Origin: a virus
Taxonomy: Duplodnaviria; Heunggongvirae; Uroviricota; Caudoviricetes
IMG/VR virus record: IMGVR_UViG_2529293015_000003
DNA length: 43,724 bases
Direction: 5' to 3' (one strand)
Each line of letters opens with the position of its first letter. The first letter of the stretch is position 1. The translations under genes and the position numbers were made by a program. Of the stretch, positions 7,046 through 34,689 are shown piece by piece. The notes beneath the pieces are model-generated. The model saw only the letters and a program-made list of their open reading frames with translations, was not told the DNA's origin and made no database searches.

Positions 7046-7714
7046 ACTTGCCGGGTACGTCTCCGGCGAGGGCTTCCACCTCCGTATGCTTTTCGGCGCA
7101 CCGCGCCCTGGCTGCAATTCGGTAACAGGGGATGCATAACCCTGGCTTCCAGCGTGATTAGCGCCTTCAGCATGACGGGATATACCCGTAGCAAGACGTT
7201 ATTCCTAAATTGCTAAAAGCAATTGCTGTTACGCCGAATGAAAAAGGACGTAACAGGTAAGGACGCTGACCAAAAAGATGGCCCCTTCTCGCTCATCTGG
7301 TTAATCGAACCAGCGCCCTTACCTGTTGTGCCTCCCCGTTCCCTAATACACAGACGGGGACACTCTGCGGTCGATTTTTTGACGGGGGACGACTCATACC
7401 CCGTGGCGTCTGGCTTCTTAGGCCGCTACCATCATCAGATCATCGTTTGCATTTACTTTAATGGTCAGTTTCTAAACCGCCGCAAAGTCGCTAACCATGA
7501 CGAAAACCCTGAAAAAAACGCCCACCCGAAGATGGGCAAACTGGAAGCTCGTAACGCACTTCGGTGTTGCCACTTAGGCGTATGGTCAACCTGGCAACTC
7601 GGCGTCATGATGGGGAAGGAGTCACTACCCCGCCATACTTGCCGCCGCGCCTGTCGCGGCTAACAGCTAAATCGCTCTATAAATCACGATTCATTGAGGC
7701 GATATTACACTAAT

Positions 7715-7731
7715 AAATTTATTAGAGCAAT
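7715..7731 (-). promoter_or_regulatory. C1-repressor-type operator (17/17 match to the P1 consensus ATTGCTCTAATAAATTT on the minus strand)
   Basis: Plus strand reads AAATTTATTAGAGCAAT; overlaps the dmt stop codon (7722-7724). Confidence 0.55.
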
Positions 7732-30155: not shown

Positions 30156-30172
30156 AAATTTATTAGAGCAAA
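30156..30172 (-). promoter_or_regulatory. C1-repressor-type operator (16/17) upstream of the kilA-like operon
   Basis: Plus strand reads AAATTTATTAGAGCAAA. Confidence 0.5.
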
Positions 30173-31294: not shown

Positions 31295-31512
31295 AAACCC
31301 CCCTGAACGTCGGCAGAGAAGGGGAGGCTCCAGTAACTAAGTGAATTGCGCGAATTAGTTGAAAAACGGGCTGTAAAAATGCAGGGGCCATCAGGCAATT
31401 GAGAGCGTGCTTCGTCTTCTGTTGCTGCGATAACGAAGTGATAGTGGTGTTTTTGGCAGGAGTAAAAGCGCCAGATAAATTCAGGATGAGTAGGGGTAGG
31501 GATAGTAGCCAC
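31291..31512 (-). CDS. Icd-like small ORF translationally coupled to the ant-like gene
   Basis: 73 codons, GTG start with AAGGAGG SD 8 nt upstream; stop overlaps the ant ATG. An alternative overlapping 81-codon frame (31269..31514) exists. Confidence 0.4.
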   Translation of the reverse strand: MATIPTPTHPEFIWRFYSCQKHHYHFVIAATEDEARSQLPDGPCIFTARFSTNSRNSLSYWSLPFSADVQGGL

Positions 31513-31555
31513 AATGGCAGCCTCCTTTTGCTAATTTAAGGAGCTACCGCGTGAG

Positions 31556-31640
31556 GTTCCAATCTCAATGGCGGTAGCACTGACTGGGTTGGAACTACCG
31601 GCGCAAAAGGGAACCGGCCTGCCTTTCGGCAGCCCAGCCA
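31556..31640 (-). ncRNA. c4-like antisense RNA region (immI-type translational repressor); limits approximate
   Basis: Minus-strand GCUACCGCC is complementary to GCGGUAGC just upstream of the icd-like SD and to a related GCCGGUAGUUCC segment upstream, matching the a1b1/c4/a2b2 layout recalled for P1. Confidence 0.35.
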
Positions 31641-31846
31641 GCACTACCATTGATCTCGGAGCTATGTGCTACGTATGGCTGTGCGATGGCATGACACAAA
31701 AAAAGACGCTTTTGGCGTCTGTGTCGCCTTTTGCATTATCCGGGGTTCCAATCCCAGCATCCGTTTTACTAAGATGCCTGTTTAGGATAAACCGAAAATG
31801 CATTAGCACGCAAGCAAGTTAATGTAGCATATGAAGCTAAAAAAAT

Positions 31847-31863
31847 AAAATAATTAGAGCAAC
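31847..31863 (-). promoter_or_regulatory. Degenerate C1-type operator (14/17) at the immI-like promoter
   Basis: Plus strand reads AAAATAATTAGAGCAAC. Confidence 0.35.
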
Positions 31864-32009
31864 TTGCAACCATGTGAATTATTTCTCTGGTAACTAAAAT
31901 GTATGAGTTTAATTGATATGGGTCAAAGATTTTGACCATTGCATGGTGAAACTGTATGCTACAAAATGTTATTTTAAGGCGTTTTATCTGTGGCAGGAGA
32001 TAGTTAATC

Positions 32010-32360
32010 ATGTCATCTGAACATGTTCGTAAAGGTGTAACAAATGCGAAATTCAATGAAGAGCAATCTAATATTCTCTTTATTGAAATAGGAATTCTGT
32101 CAATACTGATAGGTTTAATGTCTAAATCATGGTGGGCCTTTGGCGGTTCTTTTCTTGGACTGATTTTTAGTTTAAGAATAAAATTTCTGGCAATACCATT
32201 GATGATTGTATTTAGCTTAGTATGGGGAGCTATTGGCTATAGTATTGGTACTTTGTTTGAATCAACAGCAGCAAGTATTGTTTTGGGGGTAATTGCTTTC
32301 CTGAGTGGTTTGGGTACTCATTTTGCGGCCGTGCAATGGGCAAATGATATTGCAGAATAA
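32010..32360 (+). CDS. Small polytopic inner-membrane protein (116 aa)
   Basis: AGGAGA SD; three hydrophobic helices; AT-rich gene. Confidence 0.55.
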   Translation: MSSEHVRKGVTNAKFNEEQSNILFIEIGILSILIGLMSKSWWAFGGSFLGLIFSLRIKFLAIPLMIVFSLVWGAIGYSIGTLFESTAASIVLGVIAFLSGLGTHFAAVQWANDIAE

Positions 32361-32382
32361 TTACAGATAAGAAGCGAAAAGA

Positions 32383-32859
32383 ATGAATATGAGATGGTTT
32401 TTATTATTTGTATCGTTAGTTTCAGCAGGAACATTTGCAAAAATAGATCCTCTACAATGGAATGTAATTGAAGAGAGAGGGGGGAGAGAATATACAATCC
32501 ATAATCATAATGGTGATAAGATAAGTTTTTTATGTGATATGGGATTCATGTATGGTTCACCAGATAGTGCAGGTAGTTTAGGCTTGTTGCTAAGTTCGTC
32601 GAATAATAAAAAAGAGTATAATGCTGACAAGAATAAAATAGTATTAACTATAGATGGTGAGCAATATCCTTTTAGCAATCTTGGATCAATGGTTGGAGAT
32701 TCTTGGTGGTATGCCTTTTGGCAAGATGCAGCAGATTCAAATGCTAATATGATTGATGCTTATGTTGATAATGAAAAAATTGCTACATTCCCTCTTTCTG
32801 GGCTAAGTAAGTTGTATCAACAAGCCAAAATGGATGGATGTATTAAACGAGGCAAATGA
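32383..32859 (+). CDS. Secreted/periplasmic protein (158 aa) with signal peptide
   Basis: MNMRWFLLFVSLVSAGTFA followed by a likely signal-peptidase I site before KIDP; AT-rich gene. Confidence 0.55.
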   Translation: MNMRWFLLFVSLVSAGTFAKIDPLQWNVIEERGGREYTIHNHNGDKISFLCDMGFMYGSPDSAGSLGLLLSSSNNKKEYNADKNKIVLTIDGEQYPFSNLGSMVGDSWWYAFWQDAADSNANMIDAYVDNEKIATFPLSGLSKLYQQAKMDGCIKRGK

Positions 32860-32933
32860 TCTTTCTGTGTTAAAGATTAACGCAATCAATAAAACATTGG
32901 TTGCGTAGTATTCTATTATATAAATGGAATAAT

Positions 32934-33968
32934 ATGACAAAAATTACTAATTCTAATGAGTTGAAGTTACTGTATAAACAGTCAGTGCTCATTCCATCAT
33001 ACAAAGATCACGTAGCGATCTTGCAAAAACAATTAGGAATAGAAAAACATTCTTTTCAAAATATGACAAGATTGAATAGACAAGCTGTAATTAGTAACTC
33101 TCTTCGAAAACAATTGGCTAGTATGCCGAACTTGGCTGGAATAGGCAGCAAGTATCGTGAACATATCGCGATTTTACAGAAACAGACTCAGGCTCTTTTC
33201 CCTCATGACGCAAATAGATATATTCAAATGCTAAGGAAACAGGCCGAAATAGCTATGCCATTACGAAAACAGCTTGAGGTGCTTAATAAGCAAGCTGGTT
33301 TAAATAACATGCAAGCGATACTTAAAGAATTACAACAAAGTGCAAGTTATAAAATAGATGTAAGCCAAGACATAAAGAAAGTACTAGATCACTATGCTAG
33401 AACAAGAAATGCTTCATTACATCAAATAATAGAGCAGGGGATTTCATCTATTGCGCAGGCTTATGCTGAAGGTGCTACTGAAACATCACACACCAAAAGT
33501 AATGTTCAAAACAAAGGATTAAATAAACCTAGCTCAAAGTTTGTTGATTCATTTAAAGAGCTTCCTTATCCTCTGCAATGGTTACTAATGGTTATATTTT
33601 CTCAAGTTGTGTTTGGTGCTTTTATTGATTACGGAAAAGAGAAAACCTTGCTGGGAATACACAAGGCAGAATCATATTTTATATCTCTGTTTGAGGATAA
33701 ACCAATATCAAAGCAACAATTAATTAAAGAAAACAAAGAAATTAGTTGGGAAGATCTCAATGGTTTTCGTTTTATAACTGGTGAGAACGTAAGATTACAC
33801 GTCAGTCCTTCTATAAATAGTGAGGTGATTGAATGCATTGGCAAAAATACTATAGTGGCTGTTTTAGATAAAAAAGATCGCCAATGGCTTTTCGTGCAGG
33901 TTAAATCAGGGGACGAGTTTATTACTGGATGGATTACACGAACATACACAAAGCCTCTTAAGGCTTGA
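32934..33968 (+). CDS. Bitopic membrane protein: repeat-containing N-terminal domain, one TM helix, C-terminal SH3b-like domain
   Basis: Internal tandem repeats (HVAILQKQ...LRKQLASMPNLAG and HIAILQKQ...LRKQLEVLNKQAG), TM helix LQWLLMVIFSQVVFGAFIDY, SH3b-like C-terminus; ATG at 32934 chosen over the track's TTG at 32901. Confidence 0.5.
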   Translation: MTKITNSNELKLLYKQSVLIPSYKDHVAILQKQLGIEKHSFQNMTRLNRQAVISNSLRKQLASMPNLAGIGSKYREHIAILQKQTQALFPHDANRYIQMLRKQAEIAMPLRKQLEVLNKQAGLNNMQAILKELQQSASYKIDVSQDIKKVLDHYARTRNASLHQIIEQGISSIAQAYAEGATETSHTKSNVQNKGLNKPSSKFVDSFKELPYPLQWLLMVIFSQVVFGAFIDYGKEKTLLGIHKAESYFISLFEDKPISKQQLIKENKEISWEDLNGFRFITGENVRLHVSPSINSEVIECIGKNTIVAVLDKKDRQWLFVQVKSGDEFITGWITRTYTKPLKA

Positions 33969-34098
33969 ATTTTATCACCGTATCTTGGGGCTGGGTGTTG
34001 ATGACGATGTGCTACTTGAAGCACTTGAGTTGTTTTAACATAGTATCTGAAATGTGTAGACTGACCGGTAACAAATGACAACTCGTAGAATCGGTTAA

Positions 34099-34689
<591 letters not shown>

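Follow-up and report, generated by a model that had tools for sequence, protein, structure and literature searches.

A low-GC three-gene segment in place of simABC in a P1-like phage-plasmid: one of several cassettes at an exclusion locus known to vary

Introduction

The closest described counterpart of the DNA studied here is the sim region of bacteriophage P1 (NC_005856), where simA, simB and simC, co-oriented with pmgC, occupy the DNA from Oc4/Pc4 to that gene. According to the citation of Kliem & Dreiseikelmann (1989) in PMC8546580, Sim causes superinfection exclusion. The genes simABC were non-essential in a P1 screen by CRISPR interference and are dispensable for lytic growth (PMC10695390), and the low-GC sim region is one of eight regions described as highly variable in P1-like phage-plasmids (PMC9603915, PMC6906374). 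This work deals with the corresponding interval of the IMG/VR record IMGVR_UViG_2529293015_000003, a stretch of 43,724 nucleotides (the window, in what follows) from a P1-like (IncY-type) phage-plasmid. In place of simABC, its positions 31863–34069 carry three plus-strand genes, here named A, B and C. This segment is an alternative cassette, made of uncharacterised families, at a known variable exclusion locus.

Two other arrangements deserve comparison. The phage-encoded superinfection-exclusion proteins T4 Imm and Sp (spackle), HK97 gp15 and P22 SieA act at DNA entry, and the combination of a small inner-membrane protein with a secreted periplasmic protein, as predicted for A and B, would be analogous to them in architecture. 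General scans of A, B and C against Pfam, PHROGs and NCBIfam gave no match to Imm or Sp, whose sequences were not compared directly. In the CP4-57 prophage of Escherichia coli K-12, the gene order ypjK-yfjS-yfjT resembles the segment in that yfjT, to which B is related, lies about 22–23 nt after the gene of a small membrane-associated protein; it differs in that YpjK and YfjS are no relatives of A, and that CP4-57 lacks an SH3b gene.

Phage-plasmids of the P1 type carry resistance genes and are frequent in Enterobacteriaceae of clinical and animal origin, and the entry of such an element into a cell already holding one depends partly on exclusion genes. A cassette slot with YfjT-like genes in about half of the sampled elements offers a simple, testable handle on yfjT function and on phage-plasmid incompatibility. 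No new principle is involved: the variability of the sim region is published, and exclusion morons beside immunity regions are well known. No paper was found that describes the A, YfjT and SH3b content of the slot or gives it a function.

Position and Composition of the Segment

The homology of the window to P1, D6 and JL22 ends on the left at about 31862 and is back at 34070. Since these are the borders of identity with P1, and since P1 carries simABC in the same interval, the segment is an exact positional replacement of simABC. The initial annotation had located the genes at the P1 sim position, between an immI-like region and the tail genes, and the landmarks found at both borders agree with this. 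The left edge of the conserved immI region is marked by an Oc4-like C1 operator, belonging to the C4/icd/ant operon (31847–31863, minus strand; GTTGCTCTAATTATTTT, with 3 mismatches to the C1 operator consensus), and Oc4 occupies the corresponding place in P1. The right edge is the conserved pmgC leader (34070–34122, plus strand), which from 34070 onwards is 95–97% identical to P1 and other P1-like elements; the identity to P1 restarts 53 bp before pmgC, where the P1 annotation has the late promoter LPsit.

Concerning composition, the 2.2-kb segment has a GC content of 0.347, while 2.2-kb windows elsewhere in the 43.7 kb have a mean of 0.478 (standard deviation 0.022, minimum 0.435). At third codon positions the GC content is 0.23–0.28 in A, B and C, and 0.47–0.51 in pmgC, tub and pmgB. 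The lower GC of the three genes, together with the sizes and architectures attributed to their products (a polytopic membrane protein, a signal-peptide protein, and a protein with repeats, a transmembrane (TM) helix and an SH3b-like domain), had been pointed out beforehand and was confirmed, as was the envelope localisation of all three, judged from predicted signals.

Twenty-seven PLSDB plasmids of about 90–100 kb, from E. coli, Salmonella and Klebsiella, match the stretch 31500–34200 from end to end with 99% identity. Around 630 further P1-like PLSDB plasmids match only its flanks, and in the phage collection no record matched beyond the flanks. The PGAP annotation of one near-identical plasmid (CP099272) contains the same three genes. 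Existing annotations call their products hypothetical or SH3-domain proteins. In PHROGs, A, B and C belong to phrog_15014, phrog_3429 and phrog_7086, respectively, all of them families of unknown function. The suggestion that the segment may be undescribed went too far, as the variability of the region is published and the genes are annotated and represented in PHROGs.

Compared to P1 simABC, the segment shares slot and orientation (Oc4/Pc4 to pmgC), low GC, the character of dispensable accessory genes and the presence of signal-peptide products. It differs in gene number and architecture, and neither the polytopic membrane protein nor the bitopic SH3b protein has a Sim counterpart. The three proteins are no Sim homologues. 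When A, B and C were compared with SimB or SimC by BLASTP, E was > 2 or no alignment was obtained, and when a SimC alignment was matched to the YfjT and C families with hhalign, the probability was < 1%, with only the signal peptide aligned. Nothing meaningful came from an NCBIfam scan of the three proteins, and a scan against PADLOC-DB v2 returned no family at E ≤ 1. A scan against a local Pfam copy, which lacks the YfjT model, yielded a single, marginal match, of SH3_3 for C.

Alternative Cassettes in the Sim Slot

The content of the slot was compared in 80 P1-like loci collected from IMG/VR via PmgC, by typing the icd-to-pmgC interval with tblastn and by reading of open reading frames (ORFs). 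Counts refer to the 67 loci with both icd and pmgC. About seven alternative cassettes occupy the slot. The commonest (19/67) encodes a weakly TraT-like glycine-zipper lipoprotein and a secreted DUF5384 protein. In order of decreasing frequency, it is followed by a secreted protein of 172–224 residues, here named X, with a YfjT-like protein of 158 residues (18/67); by SimABC itself (11/67); by X with a YfjT-like protein of 168 residues and a C-like protein of 394 residues, the yfjT stop overlapping the C start (9/67); by the A + B + C type of the window (6/67); by A + B with a minus-strand gene for a DUF4760 membrane protein replacing C (3/67); and by X with a 34% identical SimC-like protein, which was seen once. 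Other relatives combine X + A + B + C (L005–L010) or, in a Salmonella element (L012), X + A + YfjT-like without C. In all, YfjT-like genes were present at 36 of the 67 loci, and every one of the recurring slot families has a signal peptide, a lipobox or a TM segment.

The flanks of the slot are 94–98% identical among loci, while the YfjT-like alleles are only 26–37% identical to B. Conserved flanks combined with divergent alleles in this way are characteristic of a diversifying conflict locus.

The initial annotation described A, B and C as a three-gene module, a description that proved too strong. Loci L084 and L012 have A + B and lack C; elsewhere B is accompanied by a different partner, X, and C may be present or absent (L037, L019); C stands by itself at L102 and L004, and so does A at L096–L098. 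As each of the three genes is found without the others, we regard the trio as a mosaic stack rather than as an obligate three-gene system.

Several cassettes show features of their own. The lipoprotein of the commonest one (173 residues; e.g., L016 4856–5920, and 18 other loci) matches TraT in Pfam with E 7e-5, which is below threshold. TraT is a surface-exclusion protein, so the weak match fits an 'exclusion slot'. The accompanying DUF5384 protein is secreted and coiled-coil. The DUF4760 protein found in place of C (L084 4877–5770, minus strand; also L072 and L085) is a 297-residue membrane protein (Pfam E 6e-14) that gave no PADLOC match.

P1 SimA (52 residues; L002 3560–3718) was compared with copies of X (L019 3562–4080, L037 4730–5404 and L005 3925–4563). 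It matches approximately the first 45 residues of X, and then the sequences diverge. Because the match ends there, P1 simA has the appearance of a truncated remnant, and a breakpoint of cassette recombination would lie within X.

Gene B and the YfjT Family

Gene B (32383–32859, plus strand) encodes a secreted protein of 158 residues. The initial annotation found no assignable motif in any of the three proteins, which does not hold for this one, as B belongs to the YfjT family (PF27224). That family is the precomputed Pfam label of a 99%-identical B protein and also of Salmonella and other homologues, and by BLASTP B is 28% identical to K-12 YfjT over 143 residues (E 4e-11). A word-indexed search with B retrieved only near-identical copies, and only 21 relatives came out of 1.84 billion representatives scanned exhaustively with HMMER, so that the family is small.

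The N-terminus of B is a typical Sec-type signal peptide (MNMRWFLLFVSLVSAGTFA/K). An alignment of 17 family members shows a signal peptide and invariant C51 and W109, with C153 and W26 reaching a conservation of 90% or more. The signal peptide and the conserved cysteine pair thus predict a periplasmic location, like that of the signal-peptide-bearing SimC, and suggest a disulfide-bonded protein. The AlphaFold2 (AF2) model of B is a confident one (predicted local distance difference test, pLDDT, 87; predicted template modelling score, pTM, 0.79) and contains nine strands and two helices. Fold searches did not go further: Foldseek found no close solved fold in the PDB, the YfjT-family profile matched no PDB sequence, no lysozyme-inhibitor-like fold was detected, and the matches of the model in BFVD were unannotated phage proteins only.

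As to distribution, tblastn located YfjT-like genes in 185 PLSDB records, nearly all of them non-mobilizable and of about 90–100 kb, and they occur also in P1-like phages and in the K-12 CP4-57 prophage. The family is almost confined to phages, prophages and phage-plasmids. YfjT-like genes of about 26% identity lie among unannotated genes of Serratia and Pectobacterium jumbo phages of 272–279 kb (e.g., Serratia phage 2050HW, L095 2974–3417). Their presence there suggests a benefit to the phage and not to the host alone.

A chromosomal contig of 194 kb (L099 4608–5471) carries a YfjT-like gene, 36% identical to B, after an unrelated 116-residue membrane-protein gene. It precedes the gene of a LuxR-type response regulator, and genes for Hcp and for a 1166-residue Ig-repeat adhesin are nearby. 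Together with K-12 ypjK-yfjS-yfjT, this locus suggests a recurring pairing of a small membrane protein with YfjT, in which the partners are not homologous. Three multi-stretch YfjT matches (P0071, P0076 and P0083) were judged spurious, the proteins being of the repeat, META or SpaA kind.

Gene C

Gene C (32934–33968, plus strand) encodes a bitopic protein of 344 residues when read from its ATG; a TTG at 32901 would give 355 residues. Its layout comprises a basic, repeat-containing N-domain (residues 1–205), a single hydrophobic TM helix (approximately 212–234) and a putative C-terminal SH3b domain (approximately 285–338). The N-domain has a net charge of +14 and eight L-x-[KR]-Q motifs spaced by roughly 17 residues. 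Tandem Repeats Finder detected no DNA-level repeats in the segment, the repeats of C being degenerate at the protein level. Considering that C has no signal peptide, and given the charge of its N-domain, a topology with the N-terminus inside and the C-terminus outside is predicted.

The SH3b match of the window copy is marginal when taken alone, with 26.0 bits against SH3_3 (PF08239) and a gathering score of 27; in the family as a whole, 25/25 members match SH3_3 at E ≤ 1e-3 (best 2.3e-9). The AF2 model obtained from the 25-sequence alignment had a pLDDT of 42, too low for the fold to be confirmed from it, and the only PDB sequence matched by the family profile was a designed helical protein.

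The C family comprises 48 clusters confined to Enterobacterales, mostly on contigs of 90–100 kb. The two halves of the protein differ strongly in conservation. The part formed by TM helix, linker and SH3b is 50–99% identical to the window copy, with 28 invariant columns, while the N-domain is hypervariable (7–58% identity), with tandem repeat units and lengths that differ. The 5′ end of the window gene is unlike that of the 394-residue relatives, the recombination point being near 32989. C-like genes unaccompanied by A or B are found in a Citrobacter phage-plasmid of 98.8 kb (L102), as a lone gene on the strand opposite to its neighbours, in Yersinia (L004), after umuDC-like genes, and in another Citrobacter locus (L003), adjoining KilA-N genes.

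In its predicted plan, C resembles the bitopic peptidoglycan-binding proteins with SPOR or LysM domains (e.g., DamX, FtsN and FimV), which have a cytoplasmic N-domain, a TM helix and a periplasmic peptidoglycan-binding domain; C itself has a repeat-rich N-terminal region and a putative C-terminal domain of wall-binding type. It differs from them in that its wall-binding domain is of another family, there is no sequence relationship, and the C family is restricted to Enterobacterales.

Gene A

Gene A (32010–32360, plus strand; phrog_15014) is preceded by a GGAG Shine-Dalgarno sequence and encodes a protein of 116 residues with four hydrophobic stretches, about four TM helices according to its hydropathy, i.e., a predicted polytopic inner-membrane protein. 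It has the N-terminal motif VRKGxTNAKFNEEQS, and the residues conserved in the family alignment include His104 and, within the first helix, a charged Glu. Homologues of 58–72% identity come from a Salmonella P1-like element, from Vibrio and from metagenomes. Outside P1-like elements A is solitary: its neighbour is an integrase at L098 and an AAA ATPase at L097, at L096 it belongs to a plasmid stbB operon, and at L011 its surroundings are chromosomal and metabolic. The homologues of the stbB operon (L096 4588–5360), 32% identical to A and located at the end of the operon, are shared by 15 Moraxella bovis plasmids with relaxase and type IV secretion genes. A role of A as a colicin-type immunity protein or as a conjugative entry-exclusion protein was considered in view of its size and of the Moraxella plasmid context, and no evidence supporting it was found.

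Possible Function of the Cassette

The segment is best read as an allele at the sim hot spot already known, formed by a stack of horizontally acquired, independently mobile envelope-protein morons. The genes read away from the immI operon and are probably expressed in the lysogen. As to their function, prophage-encoded superinfection exclusion, the role of SimC in P1, is the most likely one, and we give it a probability of about 0.45, i.e., somewhat less than even, on the basis of position and localisation. What favours it is, in the first place, that the sole characterised occupant of the slot is an exclusion gene and that the slot encodes exported or membrane proteins only. Besides, the alleles are ancient and can stand in for one another on nearly identical backbones, YfjT-like genes are found chiefly in phage genomes, those of jumbo phages among them, and C has a rapidly diversifying domain. 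The segment lies upstream of the conserved leader of the late operon and is no part of it, which counts in the same direction.

If the cassette acts in exclusion, a candidate sigma-70 promoter (31932–31960, plus strand; TTGACC-17-TATGCT, 9/12 matches, a consensus match only) could drive A-B(-C) in the lysogen. B would be exported by Sec, oxidised in the periplasm and might there interfere with the injection machinery of an incoming phage, while A would act at the inner membrane. C would be anchored with its N-terminus in the cytoplasm, where the fast-evolving basic repeat domain would be found, and with its SH3b domain at the peptidoglycan.

Several points weigh against superinfection exclusion. 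Position alone cannot separate it from other envelope conversions, no experiment exists on any of the A, B and C families, and YfjT is still counted among the uncharacterised E. coli genes (PMC11551758). The three proteins have neither homology to Sim nor a match to a PADLOC model. Homologues of A are found in chromosomal and plasmid contexts without a phage link (L011, L096), and a YfjT-like gene lies in a chromosomal island beside a response regulator (L099). Finally, matches of sigma-70 type are no more numerous in the region than in shuffled sequences. Taken together, the observations of the initial annotation are confirmed, and its interpretation, a horizontally acquired exclusion or defence module, is partly supported.

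A more specific proposal is that YfjT-family periplasmic proteins are widespread and so far unrecognised exclusion effectors, allelic to SimC at the sim slot and with interchangeable membrane partners (A, X, YpjK/YfjS), C being a separate, peptidoglycan-anchored exclusion factor whose hypervariable repeats would track injected proteins of rival phages. We regard it as doubtful. If it were true, yfjT, an E. coli y-ome gene, would gain a function.

The alternative that survives best, even if it is unlikely, is lysogenic conversion unrelated to phages, in which the envelope proteins would protect or adapt the host (immunity to or inhibition of colicins, type VI secretion effectors or lysozyme; serum, stress or biofilm). 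Lambda Bor and TraT are examples of host-adaptive envelope conversion. A small, beta-rich, periplasmic protein with a predicted disulfide bond, such as B, is like many orphan immunity or inhibitor proteins; the neighbourhood of Hcp and giant adhesin genes at L099, the weakly TraT-like lipoprotein of an alternative cassette and the non-phage contexts of A homologues point the same way. However, the concentration of the YfjT family in phage genomes, jumbo phages included, and an exclusion gene as the slot's only characterised occupant speak for a role directed to phages.

An obligate three-component system of anti-phage defence or abortive infection, with A, B and C working only jointly, seems improbable. 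The genes are tightly spaced and co-oriented, the trio is about 99% identical in the 27 PLSDB plasmids and in 6–8 IMG/VR loci, and the overlap of the yfjT-like stop with the C start in the X + YfjT-like + C cassettes could also be taken as a sign of joint work. Nevertheless, the partial combinations described above, among them B and C without A (L019), argue against it, and so does the lack of any enzymatic or effector domain and of a PADLOC match. Our survey of other phage-plasmids at this locus, a comparison that the initial annotation had proposed, recovered both the intact trio and its dissociated parts.

It is even harder to accept that the segment is neutral AT-rich cargo or a decaying remnant in a recombination hot spot. 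Insertion sequences (IS), gene fragments and truncations are certainly seen in the slot (L052, L078, P1 simA), but the three ORFs of the segment are intact and about 99% conserved in dozens of plasmids whose hosts and countries of origin differ, and invariant residues are kept in distant homologues.

The least probable explanation, an accessory role in the lytic cycle (lysis timing, assembly of the tail or injection apparatus, or peptidoglycan handling), draws on the adjacency and common orientation of the genes with the tail/injection late operon pmgC-tub-pmgB-sit and on the peptidoglycan contact suggested by the SH3b domain of C, but it has against it the location of the segment upstream of the conserved late promoter region, the free replacement of slot content among phages otherwise 95–98% identical, and the non-essential character of P1's own slot occupants.

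Other Features of the Region

On the right of the segment, pmgC occupies 34123–34689 (plus strand), as assigned by ORF, annotation and homology to P1. To the left lie kilA, ant1/2 and icd, all on the minus strand, and the C4 antisense RNA of immI (31567–31654, minus strand; Rfam RF01695, 76.7 bits). Just upstream of the latter, in the immI leader, there is an isrK-like Hfq-binding small RNA (31699–31777, minus strand; Rfam RF01394, 53.8 bits). Within the segment, the terminator scan marked two hairpins on the plus strand, one between B and C (32880–32906), with an 11-bp stem and a poor T-tail, which may be an attenuator or terminator, and another overlapping the stop codon of C (33951–33966).

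Some loci of the collection carry additional genes in the slot. In L042 (4611–5870) there is an extra protein of 419 residues that combines TM helices at its N-terminus with proline-rich repeats and a nuclease-like domain (DUF559/MTES_1575), and that gave weak PADLOC matches to PDC-S37 and Hhe and could be the product of a defence gene inserted in the sim slot. An ORF of 402 residues present in L078 (2337–3545), L086 and L052 resembles, as judged by eye, an IS-encoded TnpB-type protein. Decayed fragments were seen in L052 (2817–5061), where the 5′ end of a YfjT-like gene is fused to the start of the 402-residue ORF, and a remnant of 56 residues derives from a B of the window type.

Further matches to the C1 operator, with 0–2 mismatches, are located in the window at 7704–7731 (an overlapping inverted pair), 12260–12276 and 30156–30172. 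Operator matches numbered five, compared to 0.36 expected by chance.

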